From: Candidatus Curtissbacteria bacterium
Lineage (GTDB): Bacteria; Patescibacteriota; Microgenomatia; Curtissbacterales; GWA2-41-24
Length of the DNA stretch: 64,000 nucleotides
NCBI GenBank assembly: GCA_024654445.1
Contig: JANLHP010000022.1
Coordinates: 15,332-79,331, forward strand
Reading direction: 5' to 3'
Shown here: piece after piece, positions 22,536 through 45,965 of the stretch
Layout of the letters: each line of letters opens with the position of its first letter
Numbering within the stretch: the stretch's first letter is position 1
Position numbers and translations under genes: made by a program
Notes under the pieces: generated by a model
The model's database searches: none
What the model saw: the letters and a program-made list of their open reading frames with translations, nothing else
Told to the model about the DNA's origin: nothing

Positions 22536-22546
22536 AACGCTAGTTT

Positions 22547-24331: not shown

Positions 24332-24351
24332 TATTTCTTTTTTCGAACCTG

Positions 24352-24384
24352 CTTGCCTCGCTCCGCTTGCGAAGCGGGTCGAGA
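24352..24384. terminator. GC-rich hairpin (CCGCTT-GCGA-AGCGG) in the short gap between the ALS-like and DmpG-like genes; a possible attenuator or terminator.
   Basis: Perfect 6-bp stem flanked by A/T runs. Both flanking genes are on the minus strand. Confidence 0.25.
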
Positions 24385-24398
24385 AAAAACGAACTTTT

Positions 24399-26316: not shown

Positions 26317-26365
26317 CATCGACTTTGTAAAACTCGGGAAAACTATTGTACACCTCAAAAGGAAA

Positions 26366-30007: not shown

Positions 30008-30745
30008 TTACAAGTTATTTTTTAAAACTAGCTCTGCGAGCTGAAAATCAATTTCATTATCTATATCAACAGAACTGTTCTCATCAAGCATCACAAACCT
30101 TATGCGTTTACCAGTTAACAATTTATCTTTCATTAAAGTTTCGTATCTTACGGCAATAACGTCTACATGGGCAAACGCCTGCGGCAAGAGTTGTCTGGCA
30201 ATATTAGAAGGCTCATTAAAACCTGTTAATTCTTTCGGCACAAAAGGTTTTAATTCCACGCCGTCAACACGCCAGAGCTTGTAAGGATGTTTAGGGGCAG
30301 TTTTAATAGTTCTTGCGGAAGTTGCTTTTTTGTCATTTAACAAAAGCTCGATACATGCGTCAATAGAGTCTGTCCTACAAAGTGGAGCAGTAGGGGGGAG
30401 ACGCAAAATAATATTAGGGATCCAACCCTCATTTTTTTCAAGCCATCGAACCGCATGAGTAAGATAGGTAATATCATCCGCCCGATCGCCGGCGTACTTC
30501 TTCGGTCTTAAAAATGGGACCTCGGCCCCATAATTTTTCCCAATTTTTGCGTACTTATGACTATCAGTAGAAAGTACCAAGCGTGTAATATACTTTGATC
30601 TTTTAGCGGCCTCAATAATCCAAGCCATAAGCGGTTTTCCCAAAAGTGGTTTAATGTTTTTATTCGGAATACTTCTCGACCCGCTTCTGGCGCCGACAAC
30701 TCCAAGCACTTTTAAATTTTTGCCTTTAGATATTTTCTGGGTCAT
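30008..30745 (-). CDS. CMP-ulosonic acid synthetase (acylneuraminate cytidylyltransferase/KdsB family).
   Basis: GVVGARSGSRSIPNKNIKPLLGKPLMAW P-loop-like motif of NeuA/KdsB. Confidence 0.8.
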   Translation of the reverse strand: MTQKISKGKNLKVLGVVGARSGSRSIPNKNIKPLLGKPLMAWIIEAAKRSKYITRLVLSTDSHKYAKIGKNYGAEVPFLRPKKYAGDRADDITYLTHAVRWLEKNEGWIPNIILRLPPTAPLCRTDSIDACIELLLNDKKATSARTIKTAPKHPYKLWRVDGVELKPFVPKELTGFNEPSNIARQLLPQAFAHVDVIAVRYETLMKDKLLTGKRIRFVMLDENSSVDIDNEIDFQLAELVLKNNL

Positions 30746-32189: not shown

Positions 32190-32202
32190 ACTTTAAAAAA
32201 GA

Positions 32203-33018
32203 CTATAAAGCGGTAAAGCCACCATCAACTTTAATATTTTCTCCTGTGATGTAACGAGATGCGTCAGAGGCCATAAAAACTAATGGGCCTGCGATATCTT
32301 CACTTCGAGCCATGCGACGCAAGGGAACCCGAGCGTTAAATTTTTTAACAAAACGTCTGTCTTGATTATTGAAAACCCCACCTGGAGAAATCACATTTAC
32401 CCTGACGTTATATTTGCCCCACATCACAGCAACATATTTTGTCAAATTCAAAAGAGCCGCCTTAGAGGGGCCATACATAGGTGGTTTCAAAAATGGAGGA
32501 TCCACATCTATATGATCATAAAAATGTGGATCAGGGGAAACCGAAGCGTACAGCGAACCAACATTAATTATTGATCCTTTTTTTGCCCTCGCCATTTCGC
32601 TTCCAAAAACTTGAATCATTAAAAAAGCGCCGAGGACATTAACTGTCAATATTTTTTCACCTATCTCGTATGGTATATCTTCAAATTTGTATCCCTCCTG
32701 AACTTTCGTCGGAGGTTGGTCAATTCCTGCGTTATTAACAAGAATTAAAGGAAGACCGAACTTTGTCTTGCAATCTAAAAATGCTTTTTCAACTTGTTTT
32801 CTGTTTAAAACGTCTGCCCTTAAAAGACCTAACTTATTGCCATATTCTTCCTGTAGGAGCGAAAAAGTTTTTGGAATCACCGCATATTTCTGATCCACAC
32901 CAACAACTGTTGCCCCAGCTTCCAGAAGGGCCCTCGACCAAACAGGCCCCAAAAGCCCAAGGGCCCCAGTAACAACGGCCACTTTCCCTTCCAGATTAAA
33001 AAGATTAAGAACTGCCAT
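32203..33018 (-). CDS. Short-chain dehydrogenase/reductase (SDR).
   Basis: VVTGALGLLG, NNAG, and YGPSKAA (YxxxK). Confidence 0.8.
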   Translation of the reverse strand: MAVLNLFNLEGKVAVVTGALGLLGPVWSRALLEAGATVVGVDQKYAVIPKTFSLLQEEYGNKLGLLRADVLNRKQVEKAFLDCKTKFGLPLILVNNAGIDQPPTKVQEGYKFEDIPYEIGEKILTVNVLGAFLMIQVFGSEMARAKKGSIINVGSLYASVSPDPHFYDHIDVDPPFLKPPMYGPSKAALLNLTKYVAVMWGKYNVRVNVISPGGVFNNQDRRFVKKFNARVPLRRMARSEDIAGPLVFMASDASRYITGENIKVDGGFTAL

Positions 33019-33511
33019 TTTTAGAAGTGACTATCAAATCGCATATTTCCCTAACCGCACCCAAACCCCCGGCTTTTTGCGTGATGTAAAGAGAAACAGC
33101 CTTTACTTCTTCGTATGCGTCTGAGACGCTAATTGGAAGTCCAACTGCAGTCATACACTCCAGATCATTAATATCATTTCCGACATAAGCAGTATTTTTG
33201 TGTTCTATGTTTAACCTTTTCAATAATTGTTCGAGAGCTAATCTTTTTTCATCTACACCGGTCAAGCATGGTATCTTTAGCTTTCTGCACCTCAACCTAA
33301 CTACAGGATTTTTCTCTTTTGAAATAACCCAGGACAATATCCCTGCCTTGCGTAGCTTAGAAAGGCCGATTCCGTCGCATCTATTACACCTAACCGCCTC
33401 GCTGCCGTCTTCAAATACCCAAACAGTGTTGTCTGTAAAAACGCCATCAAAATCGAAAACTACAAGTTTGACTTCCCGGGCCCTTACACCAACAAGCTGT
33501 CGTTTAGACAT
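33005..33511 (-). CDS. HAD-IIIA KdsC-type phosphatase (ulosonate-phosphate phosphatase).
   Basis: LVVFDFDGVFTDN motif I and GND motif IV. The size (168 aa) is typical of KdsC/Kdn-9-P phosphatases. Confidence 0.85.
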   Translation of the reverse strand: MSKRQLVGVRAREVKLVVFDFDGVFTDNTVWVFEDGSEAVRCNRCDGIGLSKLRKAGILSWVISKEKNPVVRLRCRKLKIPCLTGVDEKRLALEQLLKRLNIEHKNTAYVGNDINDLECMTAVGLPISVSDAYEEVKAVSLYITQKAGGLGAVREICDLIVTSKNGSS

Positions 33512-34571
33512 ACTCGAGCGTAAGTTCTTGATCAGGTCTCAAATTTACTTTCAATACTTTTCCGTAAAATTCTTCGGCGAGGTAAGGCGGAATACCTGTT
33601 CCAGGGGATTTAAATGCAAGATCGTCCTGTTTTATTTTCTGTCCCGCCAAGAGTTTTCGTGCGGCAACGACACTTTTACCCATTTTTTGCTTGCCCCCTT
33701 CCTCTTCTTCATACGCCTTCTTTATCCCGTCACCTAAAGCCTCTCTAACTCTTTTCAGATCCCTGACCAATTTTTTCATGCCAACGGGTTCCAAAGAAAA
33801 AGCATGATCTGTTCCCCTCATCGATCTGTCAAGCGTGAAATGCTTTTCAATAATTCTCGCTCCCATCGTATAAGCGACGGGGTCAACAGAAATACCATTA
33901 AAATGGTTTGAAAAACCAATAACGATATCTGGGAATTCTCTCCGGTAAGTTTCTATAACTTTTAGGTTCAATAAGTGAGCCGGAGCGGGGTAAACAGCAG
34001 TGCAATGTAGAATTGCTAGTTTTTTATTGTATTTGACAATTGTCTCGTAAGCCCGTCTGACGTCATCAAGTGTGCCCGTTCCCGTACTGACAATCATAGG
34101 TTTTTTAAACTTGGCGACGTATGAAAGTAGGGGAGTATTTGTAATATCGCCTGAAGCTATCTTAAAGCAGTCGACGTCGATGTCTTCGAGAAAGTCAGCG
34201 CTTTTGTGGTCGAATGCCGTCGCGAAAAAAATTAGTCCAAGTTTTTTTGCATGTCTTTTTAAATGGAGATACTGACGTTTACCGAACTCTAGTGCCTGTC
34301 TGTGTAAACCATAAGTCGGACCGAAGGCATTTTCGCTATTATAAGGGGAGTTAAAAAATTTTTGAGTGTATAAAAATCTATTATTTCTCTTTTGAAGTTT
34401 TACCGCATCGACCCCACAGAATTTCGCCATCTCGAACATTCTTTCACAAGTTTCGATGTCTCCTTGATGGTTATTCCCAATTTCTGCAACAACAAAACAA
34501 TCCGAGCCGTCCGAAATTAATCTATCGCCGATCTGTAGTTTTCTGTTTGAGGTTACTGAAGCTTTCGGCAT
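33504..34571 (-). CDS. neuB: NeuB-family (sialic acid/Kdn-9-P-type) synthase with a C-terminal SAF domain.
   Basis: FVVAEIGNNHQGD...GVDAVKLQK TIM-barrel signature plus a SAF antifreeze-like C-terminus. Confidence 0.85.
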   Translation of the reverse strand: MPKASVTSNRKLQIGDRLISDGSDCFVVAEIGNNHQGDIETCERMFEMAKFCGVDAVKLQKRNNRFLYTQKFFNSPYNSENAFGPTYGLHRQALEFGKRQYLHLKRHAKKLGLIFFATAFDHKSADFLEDIDVDCFKIASGDITNTPLLSYVAKFKKPMIVSTGTGTLDDVRRAYETIVKYNKKLAILHCTAVYPAPAHLLNLKVIETYRREFPDIVIGFSNHFNGISVDPVAYTMGARIIEKHFTLDRSMRGTDHAFSLEPVGMKKLVRDLKRVREALGDGIKKAYEEEEGGKQKMGKSVVAARKLLAGQKIKQDDLAFKSPGTGIPPYLAEEFYGKVLKVNLRPDQELTLEYV

Positions 34572-34718: not shown

Positions 34719-35630
34719 TTAACTAAAATCCCCATCCCAGCGTAAAATAGGCATTTTCGTTCCGAGGTTTTTCTTTATCATAACTACCCTGATTGGGAAC
34801 AATAGAACCCTTAAAAGAGGACTTCTTTCGACACTCGATCTAAACATTCTAAATCTTGACTTTAAATAGTTTTTAATCCGAAATGTATAATAAAACTTAG
34901 CCGAACAATATTGTTTCATCAGTTCATAAGAATCACGCTCTGCAAATTTTGAATTCTTAATTATTGTGCTGTTCGCCTTTACTTTATGCACAAAAAGGTT
35001 AACCCTGCAAAATCTAACTTTCCCTCCTCTCTCTAAGGATTGGAGGGCGTAAGCGACGTCAGAACTTACTCTTGATGGATATAAGCCGATTAAGGGGATG
35101 GAACTTCGCCTCGTTATAAACCCAACTCCGCATGCACCATAATTGAAAAAGTCCTCGTAATTTTTGCCGTATTCAATACCCGGAGGAACATAAACTTGTC
35201 TTATGTTTCTGCCGATCATTTTTGATCCACCGCAGATTAATAGATCGATATCCTTATTTTTTCCCAGAACCTTAATGGCTTTTTCCATCGCCTCCGGATA
35301 AATAATATCGTCGTCGCTTATATTTTTGATATATTTTCCTCTCGCTAGCATGATCCCCTTGTTGAAGGCATGTGTAGGGCTTATATCAGGTTCGGAAATA
35401 TACACATTTACAAGTTTTCTGTATTTTTTCATAAATGCAGCAGGATCAATTTTAGACAAGCTATCAACAACTATTAACTCATCTGATGAGTTCAAAAGCC
35501 CCTCGATATTTTTAAGTATTGCCTCGATCGATTTTCCTCTATTTTTAATTGTCAAAATATAGGAGATTCTTTTTTTTGAGTAGGAATCAAAACTTGGGCG
35601 CCCTTGCATCAGTGGAAATAAACTACACAC
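34719..35630 (-). CDS. GT2-family glycosyltransferase (GTG start).
   Basis: ISYILTIKNRG and SDDDIIYPE (DXD) GT-A motifs. Confidence 0.65.
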   Translation of the reverse strand: MCSLFPLMQGRPSFDSYSKKRISYILTIKNRGKSIEAILKNIEGLLNSSDELIVVDSLSKIDPAAFMKKYRKLVNVYISEPDISPTHAFNKGIMLARGKYIKNISDDDIIYPEAMEKAIKVLGKNKDIDLLICGGSKMIGRNIRQVYVPPGIEYGKNYEDFFNYGACGVGFITRRSSIPLIGLYPSRVSSDVAYALQSLERGGKVRFCRVNLFVHKVKANSTIIKNSKFAERDSYELMKQYCSAKFYYTFRIKNYLKSRFRMFRSSVERSPLLRVLLFPIRVVMIKKNLGTKMPILRWDGDFS

Positions 35631-35763
35631 GGACTAAAGTCCGTGGTTAGGCCCGGAGTCGAGTCTGACTCGACGAGGACCGCACGGCATTGTATATTTT
35701 GATATTCGCTCATAGATTCACCCTCGTCCGGGTTTAAAAGCCGAGGTTTTCTTGCTCATAATA
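35631..35763 (+). repeat. Intergenic repeat element, copy C (forward). It lies in the divergent region between the GT2 gene and gmhA, directly abutting the GTG start of the GT2 gene.
   Basis: Contains GACGAGGACCGCACGGCATTGTATATTTTGATATTCGCT and the ggactaaagtcc and gtcgag..ctcgac hairpins. Confidence 0.8.
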
Positions 35764-35789
35764 ATATCAGATCTTACTAGAAATTAAAA

Positions 35790-36395
35790 TTGATTTATGC
35801 AAAAATAGACTTCCTGTCCTCGCTAATGTCCGACCCAGATTTTTTTCATGACATAATCTCAGATCACGTTAAGGTTGTTCTCGAACTGCCAACAGAAGAG
35901 ATTAACGATTTAGCAGCCGACATTCAAGAAACTCTTAGGCGAGGCGGCAAAGTAATTTTCTTTGGTAATGGCGGTTCGGCTACTCAAGCTGCCCATTGGG
36001 CAGAGGAATTTGTCGGAAGATTTGTTAAAAAAAGAAAACCTCTCGCTTGCTTGGCACTTGGAACAAGCTCCGCCAACTTAACAGGAATCGCTAATGATTT
36101 CGGGTTCGATGAGGTATTCGCAAGAGAGTTGGAAGTTTTAGGAAACAAAAAAGACCTAGCAATAGGCGTATCAACATCTGGAAACTCGCCAAATATTTTA
36201 AACGGATTGCAAACTGCTAAGAAAAAGGGAATAAAATCCTGGATATTAACAGGCAAAAGTAAAAACAAAGCAAAAAAATTAGCAGACAAATCTCTTTCGG
36301 TCGCCTCGGACAAAACGGCAAGAATTCAAGAAATTCATGCTCTTGTAATCCACATGGTTTGCGAAAAGATTGACGAAAAAGTAAAAGCAAATTAA
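35790..36395 (+). CDS. gmhA: Sedoheptulose-7-phosphate isomerase (SIS domain).
   Basis: KVIFFGNGGSATQAAHWAEEF and STSGNS SIS motifs. Length is about 200 aa. Confidence 0.85.
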   Translation: MIYAKIDFLSSLMSDPDFFHDIISDHVKVVLELPTEEINDLAADIQETLRRGGKVIFFGNGGSATQAAHWAEEFVGRFVKKRKPLACLALGTSSANLTGIANDFGFDEVFARELEVLGNKKDLAIGVSTSGNSPNILNGLQTAKKKGIKSWILTGKSKNKAKKLADKSLSVASDKTARIQEIHALVIHMVCEKIDEKVKAN

Positions 36396-37699
36396 AGCAG
36401 CATCGAAACAGCTCTGTACAGATTTCTCGTCACAACTGTATCTTCCGGCACAGCGTATCGCCCGTCAGATAATCCGTAACCGGTTTCCACTGCAATGAAC
36501 TTCAAGCCTGCTCTCTTTGCGCACTCTGCATCCACAGTCGAATCTCCGATAAAATAGCTCGAATTAAGATCAATATTAAAATCTCTTACAGCCTGTCTTA
36601 TCATCCCAATTTTAGGCTTTCTGCAACTGCAGTTTATTTTCAGTTCTGCCAACTCCCGATAAAAACCTTTTTCCGGATGATGCGGGCAGTAATAAATGGC
36701 ATCCACTTTTATCCCTTCTCGTCCAAGTTCCGTCTCCATTTTTTTATGGATTCTATCTAGCTCTTCCACTCTGATAAAACCTTTTGCGATAGCTGGCTGA
36801 TTAGTGATTACTATCGCTAAAAAATCCGATTTATTAATCTTTTTAATAGCCTGAGCCGTAAATGGGTATAATTTAAAACTGGAAAACCTCACATTATGAG
36901 TCCCATCATGCTCATTTATTGTTCCGTCTCTGTCTAAAAAAATTGCTTTTCTTTTGTTTTTCAAATTTAATCTAGTGATCTTTCCAGAAGAATAGTCCGC
37001 TCTTACCCTTTTAAGCCTTGCGATAGTACCCACATCTTTAAGGTACTCAGGAGTGTTGTAGGCGAAGATCTTACCGCCACTCTTTAATACTGCCTCAAAT
37101 ATATCTTTTTCAAGATCAGATTTCTCCTTCTTCTTAATATATTTAAAGATCTCTGGCGAAAAGATGAAAATACCGGCATTAGTTAAGTTTTTAAACAACA
37201 GGCTTTTCGGATGAACTTTGTCCTTTCTTACCAGAAAAGAAATTACTTGATTGTTGGTGTCAGTCTCGACTAAATCAGAATCAAATGGGTGATCGTTCGG
37301 ATGGACGACAATTGTCGCGACAGAACCTTTATGGGCTTTATGGAATTTAGTCAGGCGATAAAGATCGATATCAAGCATTACATCGCCGGAAAATAAAACA
37401 AAATCATCTTTAACAAGCAATTCGAGTTGTTTCATAGCCCCAGCCGTACCCAGTGGTACCGCTTCTGTTAAATGGTGAATCCTTAACCCCCACCTTTCAC
37501 CGTCTTCGAAGTAATCTTCAATTTGGTCTCCTAAATGGCCTGAAAGAATCCAGAGGTTTTTTACCCCAGATCTTTTTAATAGAAAAATTTGATGCTCAAG
37601 AAGAGGTTTGTTACCAATTTTAATAAGAGGTTTAGGTGTATTGGATGTTAGCCTCCCTAACCTTTCACCCTTACCCCCTGCAAGTATTACAGCATCCAT
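36392..37699 (-). CDS. Bifunctional D-glycero-alpha-D-manno-heptose-1-phosphate nucleotidyltransferase (HddC-like) fused to HAD D,D-heptose-1,7-bisphosphate phosphatase (GmhB-like).
   Basis: N-terminus AVILAGGKGERLG...KPLI (NTP_transferase). C-terminus AIFLDRDGTIN and the CSCRKP zinc motif of GmhB. Confidence 0.8.
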   Translation of the reverse strand: MDAVILAGGKGERLGRLTSNTPKPLIKIGNKPLLEHQIFLLKRSGVKNLWILSGHLGDQIEDYFEDGERWGLRIHHLTEAVPLGTAGAMKQLELLVKDDFVLFSGDVMLDIDLYRLTKFHKAHKGSVATIVVHPNDHPFDSDLVETDTNNQVISFLVRKDKVHPKSLLFKNLTNAGIFIFSPEIFKYIKKKEKSDLEKDIFEAVLKSGGKIFAYNTPEYLKDVGTIARLKRVRADYSSGKITRLNLKNKRKAIFLDRDGTINEHDGTHNVRFSSFKLYPFTAQAIKKINKSDFLAIVITNQPAIAKGFIRVEELDRIHKKMETELGREGIKVDAIYYCPHHPEKGFYRELAELKINCSCRKPKIGMIRQAVRDFNIDLNSSYFIGDSTVDAECAKRAGLKFIAVETGYGLSDGRYAVPEDTVVTRNLYRAVSMLL

Positions 37700-37701
37700 G
37701 T

Positions 37702-38700
37702 TTAAAAATCATTCGGCATCTTGTAGATTATTTGACTACCATTGCTCTCGAATTTAAATGGCACAAATAGTAGCCTCTTAAGTTTTGCCCTTACCTTTTC
37801 CTGCTCTTCAGGCTTTACAAAAAGAAGCATAAAGCCACCCCCCCCCGCTCCTAACAGTTTGCCTCCCAAAGCTCCGGCTTCTTTTGCACTCAGATAAAGG
37901 TCGTCGATAACTTTATTAGAAATTTTAGTCGTTAGGCTCCTCTTAATTGCCCACGATTCATCAAGAAGCCGACCAAAGTCCTCAATTGGCGCTTTTGTGC
38001 TAACCAATATTTTTTGAGCATCATCAACAAGTCGAAGCATTTTTTTAAGCTCTCTTTTTTTCTTCGATGTTGCCTTAATCTGGCTTTTGGCTACATCGGA
38101 AGCATTCCTGGAAAACCCGGTAAAAAAAAGCATCAAGTGGTCAAGAAGTAAATTTTGTCTACCCTGGTTCATCATAATTGGAGTCACCTTTATTGTGGGA
38201 CCAGCAGAAAATTCAATTCTGTTCAAACCTCCAAAAGCTGCGATTGTTTGATCTTGAGAACCGACGTTTTCTTTTATCAATTTTTGCTCAACATATATAG
38301 CATCCTGCGCAAGTTGAAGTTTATCCACCATTTTTCCTTCGAGGCCATAGAGAGAATTCAAAAAACCAACCGTAAAAGAAGAGCTTGACCCCAATCCGGA
38401 CATTGCTGGAAGGTCCGCATTGTGTTGCATTTCCAGCCCCGACTCATGGCCTACAAACTTTAGGCACTCGCGAACCGAAGGATGATTTATTTGACTAATA
38501 TTCCTTTTATGCTCCTGTTTTGTATACCTAATTCTATAGTTGTATTTGAAAAAAGGCGGCAAGTGACGGCATGTAACGTAACAATATTTATTAATCGAAG
38601 CGGCAATAACAGCACCGCCGCCATTTTTTTCATACCACGCCGGATAATCAGTACCACCGCCGAAAAATGAAATCCTAAAAGGAGTTCTTGAAATTACCAT
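37702..38700 (-). CDS. hddA: GHMP sugar kinase (D-glycero-alpha-D-manno-heptose-7-phosphate kinase HddA-like).
   Basis: ISRTPFRISFFGGGTDYP N-terminus and the GHMP motif PAMSGLGSSSS. Confidence 0.8.
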   Translation of the reverse strand: MVISRTPFRISFFGGGTDYPAWYEKNGGGAVIAASINKYCYVTCRHLPPFFKYNYRIRYTKQEHKRNISQINHPSVRECLKFVGHESGLEMQHNADLPAMSGLGSSSSFTVGFLNSLYGLEGKMVDKLQLAQDAIYVEQKLIKENVGSQDQTIAAFGGLNRIEFSAGPTIKVTPIMMNQGRQNLLLDHLMLFFTGFSRNASDVAKSQIKATSKKKRELKKMLRLVDDAQKILVSTKAPIEDFGRLLDESWAIKRSLTTKISNKVIDDLYLSAKEAGALGGKLLGAGGGGFMLLFVKPEEQEKVRAKLKRLLFVPFKFESNGSQIIYKMPNDF

Positions 38701-39661
38701 TTTGCTTGTACCATTCTACAGTCTTCTGCAACCCTTCCCTCAAAGTAGTATTTGATTTAAAGCCTACCAGCCTCCTCGCAAGGGAAACATCAATCAGTCT
38801 CTTTTTTATCATCGTCGGTTTAGTTTTATCAAAAACAATCTTGGCGTCATCAAAATTTTCAACTTCTATTAGAATTTTCAAAACATCCCTAACGCTCACC
38901 GGAATACCCGTGCCGATATTGAGCGGCTTAAACTTTTTAAGTTTCGTGACTACGAGCATTACTCCTTCGATAAAATCGTCAACATACATTAAGTCCTTCA
39001 CATCTCGTCCGTCACCCCAAACTTCGATCGGATTATGCCTCTCGATAACCTTTCTCACAAGAGCCGGGACTACATGCGACGTTTCCCAAGCAAAGTCGTC
39101 ATAAGGACCATAAAGATTTGCGGGTCTGACAACAACAACATTCATCGGATCCTTTATTTTAGTTGCGTAAATCTCGCAAAGAATCTCACTATATCTCTTC
39201 ATCCAGGCAACCGGAAAATATTTGAAAAAAGGCTCTCCGTTCATCATTTCACTTTCGCGAACTGGGTGATTAGTTACAGGGTAAACGGTATTACTGCTTA
39301 TAAAAAGAAACTTCTTGGCTTTTGCTTCATAAGCGGCTTCGAGCATTAGGGAGTTCATTATGATATTCCCGGTAACATGAACAAGTGGGGTCTTTTCGAT
39401 AACCGCGGCACCCGACGTGTTTGCAGCACACATAAAAACATAATCAGCCCCACGAACTATCTTTCTGCAAAAATCCCCTTTTGTTAAATCGCCTCTTACA
39501 TAATCGATTTTAGAATTAATTATTTGTGGAGATTTTTTATGAACCGTAGCTTTAATCGTTGCTCCTTCACTCAATAACCTATTGATCAAATTTGATCCTA
39601 CAAAGCCAGCTCCGCCAGCAATGACAACTCTTTTATTTTTAAACAATCCTGCCCTCCTCAT
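38675..39661 (-). CDS. NAD(P)-dependent epimerase/reductase of the GDP-L-fucose-synthase type (candidate GDP-4-keto-heptose reductase). The start is trimmed to MRRAGLF.
   Basis: VVIAGGAGFVGSNL Rossmann motif and YPVTNHP...YxxxK-like site. It is paralogous to 41223..42242. Confidence 0.65.
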   Translation of the reverse strand: MRRAGLFKNKRVVIAGGAGFVGSNLINRLLSEGATIKATVHKKSPQIINSKIDYVRGDLTKGDFCRKIVRGADYVFMCAANTSGAAVIEKTPLVHVTGNIIMNSLMLEAAYEAKAKKFLFISSNTVYPVTNHPVRESEMMNGEPFFKYFPVAWMKRYSEILCEIYATKIKDPMNVVVVRPANLYGPYDDFAWETSHVVPALVRKVIERHNPIEVWGDGRDVKDLMYVDDFIEGVMLVVTKLKKFKPLNIGTGIPVSVRDVLKILIEVENFDDAKIVFDKTKPTMIKKRLIDVSLARRLVGFKSNTTLREGLQKTVEWYKQNGNFKNSF

Positions 39662-40205
39662 CTCTCCTGGAAATAATGGGGTTTTTGACAGGCCACCAAA
39701 TATTATATTTAGGATCATTCCATTTTATTGTGAACTGATTTTTTGGGTCGTAGTAAGAAGATTGTTTATAGTGATAAATGTCGTAAGTTGAAAGAACTAG
39801 ATGGCCATTGCCATATAGAGGGGGAATTAAAATTTGAACCCTATTTTTATCGGAAAGTGTAAAGCCTTCCCATTTGCCGAAGTCTTTTGAGTTTTTGTTA
39901 CAGTTAACAACTACAATGTAGAATTTTCCATAAAGACACGAGATCAACTTCCAAGTACGACGATCGCCATGAATCCCTTTCAATACCCCTCGAGATCCAG
40001 TCGAAATATCATCCTCCACAAACTTCAACTTTGAAGCATCTTTTTCGTAGATAGTTCCTTTTAAGTTTTTTTTAATTTCACGAATATACAAATTCTCGTT
40101 GAACAACTCTACATACTCTCCACGAAAATCTTCAAAGGGGTCAAGGTTAAAGAGCAAAAGTCCCTCAAGTTTCGTTTTTAAAATCTTCATTTTCGTAAAA
40201 TTCAA
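39639..40205 (-). CDS. RmlC-like cupin sugar-nucleotide 3,5-epimerase (GDP-heptose epimerase candidate).
   Basis: dTDP-4-dehydrorhamnose 3,5-epimerase fold motifs (FEDFRGEY, GVLKGIHGD). Length is 188 aa. Confidence 0.75.
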   Translation of the reverse strand: MNFTKMKILKTKLEGLLLFNLDPFEDFRGEYVELFNENLYIREIKKNLKGTIYEKDASKLKFVEDDISTGSRGVLKGIHGDRRTWKLISCLYGKFYIVVVNCNKNSKDFGKWEGFTLSDKNRVQILIPPLYGNGHLVLSTYDIYHYKQSSYYDPKNQFTIKWNDPKYNIWWPVKNPIISRRDEEGRIV

Positions 40206-40212
40206 TTTCGAA

Positions 40213-41223
40213 TTATATCAGCTCTCGCTTCGCTCGCCTGATGTAATCTCTCGCTTCGCTCGGAATTATACTACTTAAAATATCCTTAATGGTCCTGTTA
40301 GTCTCGGACTTCTTTTTTTGATTATCTGCTACTTTTACTAAGAATTCTCCCGTGTCTTTATCACCAACAAGCTTTAAACGTCTGGCGGTTTGAAGAACTT
40401 CAATTGAACAGTCAATCAAACCAAAAATCTCCATGAACGACGCAAGCTTTAAAAGTCTTACCTCGTTCCAGAATTTGCTTCTCGAGTTTTTGGCTTTTAG
40501 AATTTCACCAACAGCGTCTCTGAAATAGAGAACATGAGCCGAGATTACTTGCCCACTATCTTGAATGCCTGGTGATTTAAATATTGATTTTCTGCCCAAT
40601 CTAATCGGTGAAAGATCAAAAAGCTCAAATCCTAGGTTCCTCAGAAATACATCAAGATCGCTAAATAAAGGTTGCGACTCGAGGGTTCTTGAAAAAGCAA
40701 TTTCTGCAGAAACACCCAGCACATTTTTTGAAAGCGTTTCTACTGCACCTTTTAAAGCAAAAAGCTCTCCACCCTCTATGTCCAATTTAATAAAATCTAC
40801 ATAGGGAACCTCGTTATCTTTTGCAAATGTGTCAAGAGTTGTAGTTTGCACTTCGATGACCTTTTTAACCCTGAGATTCACTTCGTCCGGGAATCTTTGC
40901 AAAAAAAATGACCTGGCTTTTAGAAATGAGGAGGATGGTAAATTTTTTGTAACGTAAAATTTCTTCTTTTGTGCAGTCTCCCATAAAGCGTAAGGGAAGT
41001 AAGTAGTTTTATTGTCGGAGTATTTATTTAAACGTAAGCATTCCGCCCTGTCAGGGTCAAAGCCGATTATCTCTATATAAGGCTTATAAGCCTCCCAAAA
41101 ATATTCACGTCCGCCCCTTGCCCCAACGTCTACCAAGCGAACCGGTTCATCTTTCAGGATCTTTTTCCTCAGTAAGTATTGAACCAAAAGGGGATTTGAA
41201 TTAATTTTTTCGAATGAACTCAT
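40213..41223 (-). CDS. FkbM-family SAM-dependent methyltransferase (sugar O-methyltransferase candidate).
   Basis: VDVGARGG...IGFDPD and LDIEGGE motifs of the FkbM domain. Confidence 0.7.
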   Translation of the reverse strand: MSSFEKINSNPLLVQYLLRKKILKDEPVRLVDVGARGGREYFWEAYKPYIEIIGFDPDRAECLRLNKYSDNKTTYFPYALWETAQKKKFYVTKNLPSSSFLKARSFFLQRFPDEVNLRVKKVIEVQTTTLDTFAKDNEVPYVDFIKLDIEGGELFALKGAVETLSKNVLGVSAEIAFSRTLESQPLFSDLDVFLRNLGFELFDLSPIRLGRKSIFKSPGIQDSGQVISAHVLYFRDAVGEILKAKNSRSKFWNEVRLLKLASFMEIFGLIDCSIEVLQTARRLKLVGDKDTGEFLVKVADNQKKKSETNRTIKDILSSIIPSEARDYIRRAKRELI

Positions 41224-42242
41224 TAATTAGATTTAAAGTAATTTTTTCTCTTCAAAAACTCTTCCGTGTTTTTCAAATACCAGTTCCATGTTTCCTTAAG
41301 CCCCTCATTAAGTGTCGTAGTGGGATTGTAGTGAATTATTTCTCTTGCAAGGGAAATGTCCATAACTCGTTTTGGAAAACCTGCCGGTTTAGAAGAATCA
41401 AATCGAAAGTTAAAATCAACAACGGTTCGCATGGTCGCAACTAGTTTTTTAATTGTTACTCCTTTACCACTGCCCAAATTTACAAAGCCTCCTTTTGTAC
41501 CAAAGTGAAGCGCTAAAATTACACCTTCGGCGACGTCTCGACTATAAGCAAAATCGCGTATAGCACTTCCGTCACCCCAAACAACAACAGGATCTTCTCC
41601 ATTGTGAATCCTGCTCATGAGGGAAGGGATAACCATTGCGTTCTCCGGGTCAAAGTTATCTCCCGGTCCGTAAACATTGCAAGGCCTGACAACGGCAAAG
41701 CTATCTAGGCCATACTGAGTTTTATAAGCTTTTATTTGTAATTCAGCCATTCGTTTTGCCCATCCCGGATACATGTCCATAGGGGGACCCTCGAATTCTT
41801 CACTTTCATTTTTTTCTTTAAAAACCGACGCGCTTGAATACGCCCCAATAGAACTTGTATACACAACCTTCTTAACACCATTAACTCTACAGGCTTCAAG
41901 AATATTAGTATTCATCATAAGAAGCGGTACGAAAAAACTTGCTGGCTTCGACTTTGTTACTTCGATTGATCCCTTAATCCCGGCAAGGTGAAAGGCAAAA
42001 TCTACTCTCTTTGCTATTTTTTTACAAAATTCAAAACTACTTAAATCTCCGTAAATATGGCGAGCATGTTTATTCACATTAATTTTATCGAGAGAAACAA
42101 TATTCACTTGAGCGCCTGCTCCAACTAAAATATCGACAACTTGTCTGCCTATTAGTCCCGTACCCCCGGTAACCAAGACCCTCCTGTTCCTAAAATTATT
42201 TAATACTTTTTTTTCTAACATGTTGCCCTTCTGTCCTCTCAA
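41223..42242 (-). CDS. NAD(P)-dependent epimerase/reductase of the GDP-L-fucose-synthase type, paralog of 38675..39661.
   Basis: VLVTGGTGLIGRQV and YTSSIGAY motifs, and a C-terminal substrate-binding domain. Confidence 0.65.
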   Translation of the reverse strand: MRGQKGNMLEKKVLNNFRNRRVLVTGGTGLIGRQVVDILVGAGAQVNIVSLDKINVNKHARHIYGDLSSFEFCKKIAKRVDFAFHLAGIKGSIEVTKSKPASFFVPLLMMNTNILEACRVNGVKKVVYTSSIGAYSSASVFKEKNESEEFEGPPMDMYPGWAKRMAELQIKAYKTQYGLDSFAVVRPCNVYGPGDNFDPENAMVIPSLMSRIHNGEDPVVVWGDGSAIRDFAYSRDVAEGVILALHFGTKGGFVNLGSGKGVTIKKLVATMRTVVDFNFRFDSSKPAGFPKRVMDISLAREIIHYNPTTTLNEGLKETWNWYLKNTEEFLKRKNYFKSN

Positions 42243-42263
42243 AAATGCGTGGGAAAATTACCT

Positions 42264-43037
42264 TTATTCAAATACAAAATACGAAGTTCTCGATGTAATG
42301 GGAAGCCTTCTTAATTTAATGTTGTTAAGGCCCAGTACTTCTTTTAGTGCGAGCGTTTCTCCCGGGGAATCATGATCATTAAGTTCGTCAAACGCCACTA
42401 CGCTTCCTTTTACAAGGTGGGGTAAAATTGCCTGCAGACAGTTTTTTGTTGGTTCATATATGTCGAAATCAAAATAGGCGAGCGCGACTATCGTCTCCGG
42501 ACGCTCTTTGAGATATTTAACTGTTTCGACCGAAGCATCTCCTTTTCGTAGCTCATATTTTTTAATATGTGAAAGAGGATTAGAGCCTTCTTGAAATTTC
42601 ATTACCCTGTCAAGATAGTCTTCATAGTTTTTAGTAACAGAAATATTGCCGGCAGTCATCAAGTCCGACCGTCCATCTTTCCTCGATATTCTTGGAAATC
42701 CGCTAAACGTATCAAAACCAACAATCAATTTGTGTCTATTAAAGGGTTCGTAAATTCCTCGCAGTGCTGAAAATATCGCCATATTGTGTCCCCACCTAGT
42801 GCCAAAATCCATAACCACTCCCTGCAGGTCAATTATCTGACGGTACAAAAAATCCATAAAAAGAATTCTGGACAAATCTTTAGAATTTAAAAATAATCCT
42901 AGATTTGAAAAAATTTGATCGTCCGGAATAGGGGAGCTCTTAAAGAGGTCGACAGCCCCCTCGTAGTTAACCGCCTCCTCGCCGCTTAAGTATCTTTTAA
43001 TTCCGACTTTCCCACTCATTCTGTAAATTTTTCGCAT
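42264..43037 (-). CDS. TylF/MycF-family SAM-dependent O-methyltransferase.
   Basis: GVVMDFGTRWGHN and FDTFSGFP motifs characteristic of the macrocin-O-methyltransferase family. Confidence 0.7.
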   Translation of the reverse strand: MRKIYRMSGKVGIKRYLSGEEAVNYEGAVDLFKSSPIPDDQIFSNLGLFLNSKDLSRILFMDFLYRQIIDLQGVVMDFGTRWGHNMAIFSALRGIYEPFNRHKLIVGFDTFSGFPRISRKDGRSDLMTAGNISVTKNYEDYLDRVMKFQEGSNPLSHIKKYELRKGDASVETVKYLKERPETIVALAYFDFDIYEPTKNCLQAILPHLVKGSVVAFDELNDHDSPGETLALKEVLGLNNIKLRRLPITSRTSYFVFE

Positions 43038-43062
43038 TATATCAAAGAGAGTAAAAAGAGAG

Positions 43063-44172
43063 TTAAATATATTCCCTTACATGCGCCGGTATTGGCCTTT
43101 TTCCCTCATACGCAATTACCCAGGCCCAATAACGTATCCTTCCACTAATCAAATCAAAATCATATTTATTCGAACCTTTGGCACGTACCAGCCTTACTGG
43201 TTTCAACAAACCTCCTTCTTTGATGACATCAGCAAGTTCCTTTGGGCTCGGATTAAAGTTGAGTTTATTCTCGAGGGCTTCATCAATAGTTTGGTAAACC
43301 CGACTATCCCGTTCACCATGCGCAGACACCCTTATCTTTTCAACCGGAACGCTCAGAAGCTTAGCAAAAAATGCTTTATCTATTTTGTCGTATTCACTTT
43401 TAGTCATTACAAACGAAGCAGCAAGAGAATTTTCGATAAGGTGACTTTCATTAAGCGTCATTGGTACTCCTGTGACGTAGCGATTTTTTGTTAACCAATT
43501 AAGAATTATTTGGGACCCGGATTTTCCGTATTTAATCGCCAACCCTTCAATTAATTCTTTCTGAAGAGGGCTCATAGAGCCAATTCGTCCCTGGTCCAAA
43601 GGACTAAAAGCAACAAGCTGCAAATTATTTTGTTGGCAATAATCGAAGACCCCGTTATATTCGACGGATCTCTCGAAAATATTATATTCCGATTGGATCG
43701 AAGCGAGCTTGATTTTTCCGAGTAACTTGCTTGCTCTTTGAAGCTCAGTTTGCGAGAAGTTACCAACACCAATATATCTTACCTTCCCGTCACCAACTAA
43801 ATCGGAAAGCGCCCTAAAGGTCTCCTCAAAAGATACAGAATAGTTCGGCCAGTGAACCTGATATAAGTCAATATAGTCTGTACTAAGCCTCTCAAGGCTC
43901 GCGTTGCAAGCCGCAATTACAGAGCCATAAGAACTGTGTTCTGGAGAAAATTTAGTACCAACAATTACGTGAGCTCTATTTTTTTTAATTGCGGCTCCAA
44001 CAAGCTTTTCGGCAAGTCCGTCTCCATAGCTCTCTGCCGTATCGATAAAAGTCATTCCAAGTGAAACCCCTTTCTGGAGTAAATAGATAAATTTCTTTTG
44101 GGAAACTTTACTAAAATCAAAACCCGTTCCTTGTCCAATTGGGGGAAGTTTTAAAAAACTACTCTTTTGCAT
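43063..44172 (-). CDS. Aldo/keto reductase fused to a C-terminal ParB/sulfiredoxin-like (ParBc) domain. The start is trimmed to MQKSSFLKL.
   Basis: An AKR barrel (FIDTAESYGDG...) followed by GLLKPVRLVRAKGSNKYDFDLISGRIRYWAWVIAYEGKRPIPAHV, which matches the ParB N-domain GxRR box. Confidence 0.65.
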   Translation of the reverse strand: MQKSSFLKLPPIGQGTGFDFSKVSQKKFIYLLQKGVSLGMTFIDTAESYGDGLAEKLVGAAIKKNRAHVIVGTKFSPEHSSYGSVIAACNASLERLSTDYIDLYQVHWPNYSVSFEETFRALSDLVGDGKVRYIGVGNFSQTELQRASKLLGKIKLASIQSEYNIFERSVEYNGVFDYCQQNNLQLVAFSPLDQGRIGSMSPLQKELIEGLAIKYGKSGSQIILNWLTKNRYVTGVPMTLNESHLIENSLAASFVMTKSEYDKIDKAFFAKLLSVPVEKIRVSAHGERDSRVYQTIDEALENKLNFNPSPKELADVIKEGGLLKPVRLVRAKGSNKYDFDLISGRIRYWAWVIAYEGKRPIPAHVREYI

Positions 44173-45094
44173 ATCTAGAAATTTCCTTGGTGAGGCTTCG
44201 GTTGTCAAGACCGTTTTGTAAAAGCAGCCATTCTCGGCTACCGAAAACGGAAAATTGTTTGTCTGCAACTGCTAGTTTGTTCAAAGTTATTTTATTTTTT
44301 GCTTGTGAAATTATGTCAGCAACTATAGTTCCTAAACCGCCGATTTCCGAGTTCTCTTCAATAGTTATTAATTTTGAGGATTTTTTTAAAATGTCAGCAA
44401 GCTCCATACTTACTGGTTTAAGTCTGAAAACATCGATAAGGCCAACATCTATGCCGCGAGTTACCAATTCCTCGCAGACTTCAAAAGCCCTCGACGTCAT
44501 ATAACCTGTGCTTATAACATTTACACTCCTGAGCCCTCTTAAAATACTAAAACCATTTTTGAAATCTCTACTGTTTTTATAAAAATTCGGAAAGCATCCT
44601 TTGTCGAGTCTTATATACGAAGGCCCATTCATTTTATATGAACTTTGAACACTAAATGCCGCCGTTTTATTATCACAAGGATTATAAATAGTAATTTCCG
44701 GAAGTATCCTCATCGCTCCAATATCCATAACTCCGTGGTGCGTTGGTCCGTCAAAGCTGAATGAAAAACCTGCGCCGACGCCAATAATGGTAACGGGCAA
44801 ATTCATACTACAGACGCTGAACTTTATCTGCTCGAAGCACCTCAGCGTAACGTATGAGCAAATACCGTAGCAAAAAACCTTTTTCCCGGAAGCAGCAAGC
44901 CCCGCCGAAACGTCAATCATATTTTGTTCAGCAACACCGATATTAATAAATTGCTCGGGGAAGTCTTTTTTGAATTTTCTTAAAACGAATGCGTCCAAAT
45001 CATCCGATATAAACAGAACGTTCTTGTCTCTTTTACCCAGATTGTATATTTCTTCAAAAAAAGCGTCACGGATGTCAACTTTAGAAACCTTCAC
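44159..45094 (-). CDS. Transketolase C-terminal subunit (Pyr plus C-terminal domains).
   Basis: Split-transketolase C-terminal section motifs (NIGVAEQNM, EDGPTHHG-like FDGPTHHG). Confidence 0.85.
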   Translation of the reverse strand: MKVSKVDIRDAFFEEIYNLGKRDKNVLFISDDLDAFVLRKFKKDFPEQFINIGVAEQNMIDVSAGLAASGKKVFCYGICSYVTLRCFEQIKFSVCSMNLPVTIIGVGAGFSFSFDGPTHHGVMDIGAMRILPEITIYNPCDNKTAAFSVQSSYKMNGPSYIRLDKGCFPNFYKNSRDFKNGFSILRGLRSVNVISTGYMTSRAFEVCEELVTRGIDVGLIDVFRLKPVSMELADILKKSSKLITIEENSEIGGLGTIVADIISQAKNKITLNKLAVADKQFSVFGSREWLLLQNGLDNRSLTKEISRYAKE

Positions 45095-45095
45095 A

Positions 45096-45965
45096 TCATC
45101 CCTCTATAATTTCTTTTCTCGCCGCCCTTAGCTCTTCTTCGGAAAGCGCCGCGTTATGCCACCTTAAATTATTTTCCATAAACGAAACACCCTTACCCTT
45201 TATTGTGTTAGCGATAACAACTACCGGCTTTTTAGAAAGTTCAATCTTGCCAAATGTGCCCAGAATCTCACCAAAATCGTGACCGTTAATTTCAAAAATA
45301 TTCCACCCAAAGCTCATCATTTTCTCCTTAAAGTTTTTATACAGTCCTTCGTCATCGATGACATCAGTTACCATTAATCTGTTTCTGTCTATAATTACGA
45401 CTAAATTATTGAGTTTGTAATCACTTGCGAAAATAACCGATTCCCAAATAGAACCCTCGAAAGGCTCAGAATCGCCGATAATAGTATATGCTCTGTAATT
45501 TTCCCCGTTTTTTTTAGCAGCGAGAGCAATGCCGGCAGCAACCCCAACCGAATGACCAATTGAACCCGTGTTAAAATCCACCCCGTTTATCCATGTTTCC
45601 AGCTGACCTCCAAGTCCACCATTTTCGCCGTAAGAGCTATACATCTCTTTTGAAATTATTCCTAAATCTAAAAAGATTGCGTAAAGAGCGGTACAGGCAT
45701 GTCCCTTACTTAAGATAAACCGATCCCTATTTTCCCAGTTCAAATTATTCGTTTTATAACGTAAAATTTTTCCGTAATACAAAGCCACCAGTAATTCGAC
45801 GCAAGAATAAGTTCCTCCAAGATGAGCCTTACCGCTTTTCGCGGCCGCGTTTAAAACCTCGAGTCGTACCCACCTTGATTTATCTTTAAGATCGGCTTTT
45901 AGGCCCGCAGTCGAAGACGAGGACCGCAAGCCCCGCTTCTTCGCAGAAAGGCTTTGCTTCTTCAT
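45096..45965 (-). CDS. Transketolase N-terminal subunit (TPP-binding).
   Basis: GHxG...GDSE...ESV TPP-binding motif (TIIGDSEPFEGSIWES). Confidence 0.85.
   Translation of the reverse strand: MKKQSLSAKKRGLRSSSSTAGLKADLKDKSRWVRLEVLNAAAKSGKAHLGGTYSCVELLVALYYGKILRYKTNNLNWENRDRFILSKGHACTALYAIFLDLGIISKEMYSSYGENGGLGGQLETWINGVDFNTGSIGHSVGVAAGIALAAKKNGENYRAYTIIGDSEPFEGSIWESVIFASDYKLNNLVVIIDRNRLMVTDVIDDEGLYKNFKEKMMSFGWNIFEINGHDFGEILGTFGKIELSKKPVVVIANTIKGKGVSFMENNLRWHNAALSEEELRAARKEIIEG

Follow-up and report, generated by a model that had tools for sequence, protein, structure and literature searches.

The gmhA-hddA-gmhB-hddC route to GDP-heptose serves the S-layer glycan of Aneurinibacillus thermoaerophilus, where hddC and gmhB are separate genes and no thiamine diphosphate (ThDP)-dependent enzymes take part. 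The two genes are likewise separate in Burkholderia pseudomallei and Yersinia pseudotuberculosis, whose 6-deoxy-manno-heptose (WcbK/DmhA) is made by a dehydratase followed by a reductase, with neither an epimerase nor a ThDP enzyme. Here we analyse a stretch of 64,000 nucleotides ("the window") of contig JANLHP010000022.1 from a metagenome-assembled genome (MAG) of Candidatus Curtissbacteria, which belongs to the candidate phyla radiation (CPR, Patescibacteria). CPR bacteria lack an outer membrane and lipopolysaccharide (LPS) and are regarded as biosynthetically minimal; in contrast, more than 50 kb of this Curtissbacteria MAG is given over to exotic surface sugars. The glycan locus holds a cassette of 15 genes, in which GDP-heptose genes stand together with three ThDP-dependent enzyme systems, and which we read, with moderate confidence, as directing the synthesis of a GDP-activated, C-branched, O-methylated 6-deoxyheptose for a surface glycan.

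Several types of ThDP enzyme are associated with the branching of keto-sugars. Free E1 alpha/beta pairs (alphaKADH2) put two-carbon branches on nucleoside diphosphate (NDP)-4-keto sugars (PMC4802897, PMC4753412). The enzyme set for paulomycose comprises a 4,6-dehydratase, a 3,5-epimerase, a 3-O-methyltransferase, the E1 alpha/beta pair Plm8/9 (= Pau11/12) and the aldo-keto reductase (AKR) Pau7 (PMC4802897, PMC4753412), the last of which reduces the C4-acetyl branch (PMC4753412). YerE and ErwE branch CDP-3,6-dideoxy-4-keto-glucose, and ErwE uses 4-hydroxy-2-oxopentanoate made by ErwI and ErwJ (PMC9306805). Split-gene transketolases (TKs) have been proposed, without proof, for the hydroxyacetyl branch of miharamycin and amipurimycin, and the 13 reported examples all come from streptomycetes (PMC12247030).

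Extent of the cassette and its heptose enzymes

The cassette covers about 14.9 kb and consists of 14 co-directional genes on the minus strand (36392-50674) and a convergent gmhA (Table 1). All junctions among the 14 genes are overlaps or gaps of at most 25 nt, and the E1 alpha gene starts immediately after the stop codon of the 4,6-dehydratase gene. Because the junctions are tight, E1 alpha abuts the dehydratase stop codon and the gene order is conserved, we regard 35790-50674 as the functional unit. The initial annotation had ended the heptose module at 42242 and considered the dehydratase a remote gene; the region 35790-42242 is the 3' half of the cassette only, and the 7.4 kb that separate it from the dehydratase belong to the same cassette. 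The genes named in that annotation do exist as intact open reading frames (ORFs), at or next to the places assigned to them, with strong family matches (52 of the 59 longest ORFs of the window were run against Pfam or NCBIfam). Five proteins near the HddC-GmhB fusion are exact matches to records in the range MCR4324868-MCR4324880, all of which are generically named. From about 4.1 to 58.1 kb almost all genes lie on the minus strand and encode sugar-nucleotide enzymes, glycosyltransferases or exporters.

The four activities of GDP-heptose synthesis (GmhA, HddA, GmhB and the guanylyltransferase HddC) are encoded together, and their adjacency is conserved in related loci. The annotated presence of this set is borne out by the family matches of GmhA (2e-50), of the HddA-like kinase (3e-37) and of both halves of the fusion protein: the N-terminal, sugar-1-phosphate guanylyltransferase-like domain matches mannose-1-phosphate guanylyltransferase (8e-42) and HddC (4.5e-25), and the C-terminal HAD-IIIA domain resembles heptose-1,7-bisphosphate phosphatase (NF006506, 1e-43). 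HddA is the best NCBIfam match of the kinase, yet with 129 bits against a cut-off of 600 bits; its homologs in the conserved cassette share 52-67% identity. The gmhA gene overlaps the last gene of the minus-strand series by 4 nt, and its convergent placement recurs in four related loci described below (L056, L057, L060 and L063). Where gmhA really starts is uncertain, as the longest ORF and the gene call of NCBI do not agree. Together, these genes would be expected to yield a GDP-linked alpha-heptose.

The joining of NTP-transferase and HAD-IIIA/GmhB domains in one ORF is real (the protein is 100% identical to NCBI MCR4324867.1, encoded on a Curtissbacteria contig of 97.9 kb), but its description as an unusual fusion has to be rejected: The architecture is widespread and goes with the same cassette. 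Its 120 best database matches are 427-459 aa long with 53-68% identity (one is the 100% self-match), and 119 of them possess both NTP-transferase and HAD-type Pfam domains; the exception, P0049, shows NTP_transferase, PNK3P and NTP_transf_3 only. Those with a name belong to Patescibacteria (Nealson-, Staskawicz-, Azam- and Pacebacteria) or are unclassified MAGs.

The cassette begins with a gene for a 4,6-dehydratase (DH46), whose comparison with the C. jejuni heptose type is supported. It matches the C. jejuni enzyme 7US5 over its full length with 295 bits (4.4e-87, 47.8% identity over 320 aligned residues); the GDP-6-deoxy-4-hexulose reductase Rmd reaches 199 bits, E. coli GMD no more than 129 bits. 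The SSSE and YxxxK motifs are conserved in the alignment. The cupin epimerase had likewise been compared with the C. jejuni heptose enzymes, and its eight best PDB matches are all C. jejuni GDP-heptose 3- or 3,5-epimerases (109-117 bits). The score of 117 bits to 7m14 (42% identity to Cj1430/MlghB) exceeds those of RmlC structures (at most 99 bits) by a modest margin. The cupin retains the residues that have been examined in DdahB and MlghB (PMC7949155), with a His in GIHGD, a Lys, Tyr-x-Tyr and an Asp near the C-terminus (expected as His67, Tyr132, Tyr134 and Asp173). The protein thereby appears closest to a C. jejuni-type GDP-heptose epimerase, with a specificity left as wide as C3 or C3 and C5.

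The two extended short-chain dehydrogenases/reductases (SDRs) of the cassette, R1 and R2, are paralogous to each other (32% identity, 1e-55). Their best NCBIfam model is Fcl, the GDP-fucose synthase (GFS), with 165-166 bits against a cut-off of 500 bits. At the positions of GFS Ser107, Cys109, Tyr136, Lys140 and His179, R1 has Ser, Thr, Val, Lys and His, and R2 has Ser, Gly, Pro, Lys and Met. These residues were read from HMMER alignments to GFS and from a multiple alignment with cassette homologs, in which the E. coli GFS reference was put together in part from the HMMER alignments, with which its five key columns agree. The Cys109/His179 epimerisation dyad of GFS is found in neither R1 nor R2 in the alignment. 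The Thr/His pair of R1, which is kept together with Val among the cassette homologs, is the dyad of DdahC, and MlghC has Phe136 instead of the catalytic Tyr (PMC7949155). In R2 an upstream Phe/Tyr is present, of which the Tyr identity is not conserved; there is no conserved catalytic Tyr. R2 is among the most conserved proteins of the cassette, with 58-73% identity in E1-type and full cassettes, across phyla too. DdahC, MlghC and Cj1428 reach 56-96 bits against the SDRs, over the N-terminal half only, versus 117-121 bits for E. coli GFS. Of the earlier description as two Fcl-like reductases following DdahC and MlghC, the paralogy stands and the missing Fcl dyad fits, whereas a clear orthology to DdahC or MlghC is not supported. 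R1 and R2 were also considered as homologs of the ErwF-like reductase of the window (21648-22535), for which 22-23% identity is uninformative.

The Pfam name of the cupin (dTDP_sugar_isom), the Fcl models of the SDRs and the rank of E. coli GFS, first or second among the solved structures that R1 and R2 match, could indicate that these proteins are ordinary RmlC/RmlD or Fcl enzymes of rhamnose or fucose synthesis beside heptose genes. We hold this to be most improbable. All three proteins remain below the equivalog cut-offs (122.7 against 155.75 bits for the RmlC equivalog, about 165 against 500 bits for Fcl), the eight best solved matches of the cupin are GDP-heptose epimerases, and the SDRs do not possess the Cys109/His179 dyad required for Fcl epimerisation. 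Furthermore, no match to RmlA, RmlD, GMD or the mannose-1-phosphate pathway was found among the 59 longest ORFs of the window, of which 52 were scanned. An affinity to rhamnose or fucose housekeeping enzymes, which the initial annotation had named as the evidence that would speak against it, is not what these matches reveal.

ThDP enzymes and conservation of the cassette

The E1 alpha/beta pair resembles the E1 component of pyruvate dehydrogenase (PDH). The ThDP motif of E1 alpha (GDG...N) is intact and the true start of E1 beta is probably Met29; no E2 or E3 gene was found among the scanned ORFs of the window. The order DH46-E1 alpha-E1 beta recurs in L001, L002, L007, L008, L009 and L010, and E1 beta follows E1 alpha in eight related loci. 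The second system is a protein with acetolactate-synthase (ALS) fold and a GDG...NN motif. Judged by its best solved match it is of the YerE-like carboligase type: 8RPH is JanthE, a ketone-accepting YerE-like carboligase (PMC12188165). This gene is restricted to a subset of cassettes, i.e. those of the window, L008, L056 and L057 (45-69% identity) and, recognised by Pfam domains and position, L060 and L063. An ErwI-like aldolase and an ErwJ-like acetaldehyde dehydrogenase are encoded elsewhere in the window and have homologs inside the L057 heptose cassette (62-65% identity); this pair would be the probable supplier of a 2-oxoacid donor for the YerE-like enzymes.

The third system is a TK-like enzyme split into an N-terminal (TKn) and a C-terminal chain (TKc). 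TKn keeps the ThDP motif in a GDS...N variant, with His100 replaced by Gln in the subgroup of the window. The alignment of TKc does not contain the canonical transketolase residue set: Arg358, Ser385, His461 and Arg520 (E. coli numbering) correspond to Arg, Phe, Gly and Lys. Each of the nine homologs compared from DH46-linked loci has lost the sugar-phosphate-binding residues Ser385 and His461, and most have lost Arg520; the transketolases of Carboxydothermus hydrogenoformans and human, used as references, retain Ser385 and His461. The E1 and "transketolase" calls of annotation pipelines (44159-45965 in the window, and the homologs in L002-L063) sit inside glycan cassettes.

Transketolase does make sedoheptulose-7-phosphate, as established biochemistry. 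Moreover, among solved structures TKc is most similar to a split transketolase that is functional, and the metabolism encoded in CPR genomes is sparse. The split TK might accordingly be a supplier of sedoheptulose-7-phosphate for GmhA, with the E1 pair and the ALS-like protein giving acetyl units or being ordinary metabolic genes. We consider this improbable, and a sedoheptulose-7-phosphate-supplying TK is disfavoured by the lost phosphate-binding residues: Ser385 and His461 are gone in all homologs compared, Arg520 in most, and His100 has become Gln in the window subgroup. The E1 pair has no E2/E3 partner in the 64 kb of the window, the ALS-like protein scores 322 bits to JanthE versus 232 to acetohydroxyacid synthase (AHAS), and the cassette also occurs in phyla that are expected to have a housekeeping transketolase and PDH.

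Between the TK-like genes and R2 lie an AKR that is extended by about 100 aa at its C-terminus (true start probably Met33), whose position is conserved in L002, L056, L057, L060 and L063 and which is a candidate for the ketoreductase of a branch, and an O-methyltransferase. The latter had been called TylF-like; an O-methyltransferase does exist, but it lies 22 nt past the end formerly given to the module, and a PDB search shows it to be homologous over its full length to CalS11, which serves calicheamicin synthesis as TDP-rhamnose 3'-O-methyltransferase (213 bits, 44% identity over 235 residues), with no match in Pfam or NCBIfam. Cassette homologs of this protein share 55-73% identity. CalS11 works at the nucleotide-sugar stage. 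The annotated FkbM methyltransferase was found as well (PF05050, 2e-18); its presence varies, since L009, L060 and L063 have it in an unchanged position and L002, L056 and L057 lack it.

Directly upstream of the cassette and in the same direction follow Wzt and Wzm, an ABC exporter of the type for polymerised glycan. The order Wzm-Wzt-(FkbM)-DH46 is also found in L014 (4947-7937), a Dehalococcoidales MAG. The Wzt ATPase has 427 aa, about 170 of them beyond the nucleotide-binding domain, and this extra region may be a C-terminal glycan-cap-binding module. If such a module is present, one methyltransferase could terminate chains rather than tailor the monomer.

A search with the dehydratase as seed in 185,579 species-representative genomes yielded 55 loci, against which all window proteins were compared by tblastn for synteny. 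In 19 of the 55 the dehydratase shares 60-73% identity with that of the window; these 19 are labelled as Patescibacteria, Dehalococcoidia, Lentisphaerae, Verrucomicrobiota, Actinomycetes, Planctomycetota/Phycisphaerae, Bacteroidetes, Omnitrophota and Syntrophales. The colinear order DH46-E1 alpha-E1 beta-TKn-TKc-(AKR)-CalS11-R2-(FkbM)-epimerase-R1-hddA is present in L002 (Dehalococcoidia) and in L009 and L010 (Phycisphaerae), with 35-72% identity. Partial cassettes were found in L001 (Patescibacteria), L007 (Bacteroidetes), L008 (Pirellulales) and L003 (Lentisphaerae), and TK-only variants in L006, L012, L013, L015 and L030. E1 alpha/beta genes, TK-like genes or both are present in 13 of the 15 loci that have usable flanks and a dehydratase of at least 60% identity, and in no locus with a dehydratase of 49-54% identity.

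Seven neighbourhoods were sampled with the fusion protein as seed, independent of the dehydratase, and each has a TK-like gene in addition to the genes for the kinase, a SIS isomerase, the cupin and two SDRs. Four of the seven (L056, L057, L060 and L063) show the order YerE-like-TKn-TKc-AKR-CalS11-R2-(FkbM)-epimerase-R1-hddA-fusion, followed by convergent gmhA and a GT2 glycosyltransferase; the full order was established by tblastn for L056 and L057 (46-81% identity) and by Pfam domain order only for L060 and L063. The cassette order also recurs in other Patescibacteria.

The cassette shows variants. L056 (8055-8984) and L063 (8071-9006) have an additional PanB-like gene (ketopantoate hydroxymethyltransferase, PF02548) between those for R1 and the kinase, a hint that another C1 unit may be transferred to a keto intermediate. 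In L058 and L059 (1-3794), L061 (1-372) and L062 (1725-3200) a B12-binding radical SAM enzyme replaces E1 alpha/beta and the YerE-like enzyme, so that the tailoring chemistry predicted for these versions differs; L058 and L059 also encode a TK-like protein of more than 637 aa with a faint methyltransferase signal. Between MAGs of different phyla (L001-L015, L027 and L030) the dehydratase shares 60-73% and, in E1-type cassettes, R2 58-73% identity. Such unusually high cross-phylum identity suggests a relatively recent lateral spread, if it is not due to mis-binning.

On the one hand, the heptose enzymes alone would suit a simpler, Campylobacter-type output, i.e. unbranched 6-deoxy or epimerised, O-methylated GDP-heptoses, with the two reductases leading to two C4 epimers and the ThDP enzymes and the AKR serving another sugar or substituent. 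The dehydratase, the epimerase and the Thr/His dyad of R1 match C. jejuni enzymes, and MlghC with its Phe136 demonstrates that SDRs without the catalytic Tyr can be C4 reductases (PMC7949155). Moreover, L005 possesses dehydratase, epimerase and heptose genes without ThDP enzymes, and other NDP-sugar pathways of the window could employ the carboligases. On the other hand, the ThDP genes stand between dehydratase and tailoring genes in a fixed colinear order, with E1 alpha beginning at the dehydratase stop codon; they are present in 13 of 15 close dehydratase loci and in 7 of 7 fusion neighbourhoods, in several phyla; and the CDP-hexose pathway of the window owns a YerE-like (22547-24331) and a TK-like gene (28070-30007) itself. 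We regard the unbranched output as rather unlikely: As the intervening genes share the conserved cassette, a simple 6-deoxy or O-methyl heptose of Campylobacter type is probably not the end product. The DdahA/B/C and MlghB/C logic of the initial annotation holds for the dehydratase, the epimerase and the dyad-less SDRs; it is not borne out for the orthology of the SDRs and had overlooked the ThDP and AKR genes.

Proposed pathway and its implications

For the branched heptose that we favour, the following pathway can be proposed. The DdahA-type dehydratase would convert the GDP-heptose to GDP-6-deoxy-4-keto-D-lyxo-heptose, which the cupin would epimerise at C3 and/or C5; both steps are supported by homology. 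Conserved synteny and enzyme class suggest that one or more ThDP carboligases then add a carbon unit to the 4-keto intermediate: With pyruvate as donor, the E1 alpha/beta pair would attach a C2 acetyl unit; the donor of the YerE-like enzyme would be pyruvate or the 4-hydroxy-2-oxopentanoate made by the ErwI/J-like pair; and the split TK-like enzyme possibly contributes a hydroxyacetyl unit. The AKR and the two Tyr-less Fcl-like SDRs may reduce the branch carbonyl(s) or an unbranched C4 ketone. The CalS11-like enzyme is predicted to methylate O3 at the nucleotide-sugar stage, with FkbM adding a further methyl group, and the branched heptose of at least nine carbons would be built into a surface glycan exported via Wzm/Wzt.

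Several points weigh against a branched heptose. We know of no precedent for three ThDP systems in one sugar pathway, and two C4-reductase-like SDRs are not obviously needed if C4 is quaternary. The activity of these SDRs is uncertain because their active sites are non-canonical (no Tyr136). The kinase, GmhA and the HddC domain all remain under the NCBIfam equivalog cut-offs, so that the specificity for GDP and heptose rests on context and on the dehydratase match. Finally, the phylum labels are titles of MAG records, in which binning errors are possible.

Going one step further, we tentatively suggest that a conserved operon, apparently spread laterally, builds a multiply C-branched GDP-sugar of at least nine carbons from 6-deoxy-4-keto-heptose with up to three ThDP classes. 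It is common among Patescibacteria, and MAGs that are labelled Chloroflexota, Planctomycetota, Bacteroidota and Lentisphaerota have it too. If the suggestion is true, split transketolases that branch keto-sugars would be known outside Streptomyces for the first time, and no sugar-branching ThDP enzyme would have had a GDP-heptose as acceptor before. Some "transketolase" and "pyruvate dehydrogenase E1" calls in CPR genomes would then be glycan-tailoring enzymes, and metabolic reconstructions built on them may err. For genome annotation, context and active-site residues should be checked before E1, "transketolase" or "acetolactate synthase" genes are counted as central metabolism.

As the cassette recurs in CPR and other uncultured phyla, its product may be a widespread, chemically undescribed surface determinant, and such a determinant would matter for attachment to hosts and for recognition by phages and the immune system. 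Enzymologists may find in the cassette natural candidates that form tertiary alcohols with ThDP on a new acceptor, GDP-6-deoxy-4-keto-heptose, among them split transketolases with a putative role in sugar branching.

Other features of the window and comparison with known systems

Table 1. Genes of the heptose cassette, its exporter and other features of the 64-kb window, with coordinates in the window and family or structure matches.
Feature	Coordinates	Strand	Match or remark
GDP-D-glycero-D-manno-heptose 4,6-dehydratase (DdahA/WcbK type; DH46)	49685-50674	-	PDB 7US5; first cassette gene
PDH-E1 alpha-like (alphaKADH2 class)	48716-49684	-	E1_dh 3e-50; TIGR03182 242 bits vs cut-off 394
PDH-E1 beta-like (alphaKADH2 class)	47683-48810	-	Transket_pyr, Transketolase_C; NF006667 1e-93, just under cut-off
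YerE-like ThDP carboligase (acetolactate-synthase fold)	45962-47683	-	PDB 8RPH 322 bits; AHAS at most 232 bits
Split transketolase-like N-terminal chain (TKn)	45096-45965	-	Transketolase_N 2e-29; NF004559 3e-67
Split transketolase-like C-terminal chain (TKc), non-canonical	44159-45094	-	C. hydrogenoformans split TK 6yaj, 2e-45
Aldo-keto reductase	43063-44268	-	PF00248 4e-56
CalS11-like NDP-6-deoxy-sugar 3-O-methyltransferase	42264-43037	-	PDB 4gf5/3tos, 5e-62
R2, Fcl-like extended SDR	41223-42242	-	PDB 6dnt 125 bits, GFS 121 bits
FkbM-family S-adenosylmethionine (SAM) methyltransferase	40213-41223	-	PF05050 2e-18; TIGR01444
Cupin NDP-4-keto-sugar C3 and/or C5 epimerase (RmlC fold)	39639-40205	-	C. 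jejuni GDP-heptose epimerases
R1, Fcl-like extended SDR	38675-39718	-	GFS 117, GDP-mannose 3,5-epimerase 114, DdahC (7anh) 96 bits
HddA-like GHMP kinase (heptose-7-phosphate 1-kinase)	37702-38700	-	GHMP_kinases_N and _C; HddA equivalog 2.7e-37
HddC-GmhB fusion, 435 aa	36392-37699	-	NTP_transferase residues 3-236; GmhB models residues 250-433
gmhA (sedoheptulose-7-phosphate isomerase)	35790-36395	+	TIGR00441 170.7 bits, 2e-50; SIS_2 domain
Wzt	50748-52031	-	ABC_tran domain; TagH-/Wzt-type models
Wzm	52028-52894	-	ABC2_membrane domain
GT2	34719-35630	-	divergent from gmhA (+)
Nonulosonic set 2, NeuB	33504-34571	-	
Nonulosonic set 2, phosphatase	33005-33511	-	
Nonulosonic set 2, aldehyde dehydrogenase	30726-32189	-	
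Nonulosonic set 2, PseF-like cytidylyltransferase	30008-30745	-	
Nonulosonic set 2, SDR	within 30008-34571	-	
Glucose-1-phosphate cytidylyltransferase	27313-28083	-	TIGR02623, 1e-82
CDP-glucose 4,6-dehydratase-like SDR	26366-27349	-	
ErwJ-like acylating acetaldehyde dehydrogenase	25450-26358	-	AcetDehyd-dimer
ErwI-like DmpG-type 4-hydroxy-2-oxopentanoate aldolase	24399-25469	-	HMGL-like + DmpG_comm
Second YerE-like ThDP enzyme	22547-24331	-	38% identity to cassette copy
ErwF-like SDR	21648-22535	-	
DegT-family protein, possible 3-dehydrase	19363-20664	-	
Nonulosonic set 1, PseB-like dehydratase	16381-17376	-	
Nonulosonic set 1, PseC-like aminotransferase	13914-15071	-	
Nonulosonic set 1, CMP-transferase	10796-11581	-	
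Nonulosonic set 1, HisH/HisF-like amidotransferase pair	9398-10820	-	
Nonulosonic set 1, GNAT-NeuB fusion	6706-8358	-	

Beyond the cassette, the genes at 19363-28083 on the minus strand, with the ErwI/J-like pair among them, look like a complete erwiniose/yersiniose-type pathway. Adjoining its CDP-glucose genes, a full-length transketolase/DXS-like protein of 645 aa is encoded at 28070-30007 (minus strand). Its ThDP motif is intact, and at Arg358/Ser385/His461/Arg520 it has Val/Asp/Leu/Ser, so that a second non-canonical TK-like enzyme stands beside a 4,6-dehydratase. Apparently two nonulosonic-acid gene sets (5177-17376 and 30008-34571, both on the minus strand) are present, and the HisH/HisF-like pair of the first suggests an acetamidino modification. 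Three large membrane proteins of GT-C, PMT_2 and DUF2142 types are encoded at 17712-19394 (minus strand) and 58124-60849 (plus strand). They are candidate extracytoplasmic glycan transferases or ligases, and their types are consistent with protein or cell-wall glycosylation without LPS. The divergent intergenic region between the GT2 gene and gmhA (35631-35789, 159 nt) is locally G+C-rich and contains two hairpins (e.g. CACGGACTAAAGTCCGTG). It has no Rfam match, its fold is marginally stable (z = -1.95), and a promoter and terminator scan of this region gave nothing above shuffled expectation.

In the searchable literature we found neither ThDP branching on GDP-heptose nor GDP-heptose in CPR, although one paper mentions ADP-heptose genes in Paceibacteria. 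Literature searches likewise did not return three carboligase classes in one operon, non-streptomycete split TK-like genes in such a context, or the prevalence of the cassette in CPR; some of the genes may already be listed in the large mining study of sugar-branching ThDP enzymes by Krug et al. 2024.

With the routes of Aneurinibacillus, Burkholderia and Yersinia the cassette shares the logic of GDP-heptose synthesis for a surface glycan, which operates also outside the LPS core. The likeness to the capsule heptose system of Campylobacter jejuni (PMC10680097, PMC7949155) extends to the 4,6-dehydratase (48% identical) and the cupin (42%), with catalytic residues kept, to separate Fcl-like SDRs without the GFS dyad, of which R1 has the DdahC-type Thr/His and R2 is Tyr-less as is MlghC, and to O-methyltransferases encoded alongside. 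In contrast to C. jejuni, a single protein combines HddC and GmhB, a clear orthology of the SDRs to DdahC or MlghC is not seen, and the cassette adds three ThDP systems, an AKR and a CalS11-type enzyme, none of which is among the 20 C. jejuni heptose enzymes listed; export is by Wzm/Wzt, and the host is a CPR bacterium.

The pathways of yersiniose, erwiniose and caryophyllose (PMC9306805) resemble the locus in the YerE-like enzyme, the NAD(P)H reductases and the ErwI/ErwJ-like pair. Their acceptor is CDP-3,6-dideoxy-4-keto-glucose, whereas the cassette co-encodes a route to GDP-6-deoxy-4-keto-heptose. Judged by enzyme class and gene set, the cassette can be likened to the paulomycose, eurekanate and aldgarose type (Pau11/12, AviB1/B2, KbDH), which has the same enzyme set and an E1 pair without E2/E3. 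That type, however, acts on dTDP- or UDP-hexoses and pentoses for actinomycete antibiotics, while the cassette concerns GDP-heptose and a surface glycan of uncultured bacteria. With miharamycin and amipurimycin it has in common a split TK in a sugar-tailoring cluster, beside an enzyme that generates a keto-sugar; unlike theirs, the TK-like enzymes of the cassette belong to Patescibacteria and other phyla, and they have consistently lost the Ser and His that bind phosphate. The GDP-heptose steps and the idea of ThDP branching of keto-sugars are known, and what appears to be new is their combination.

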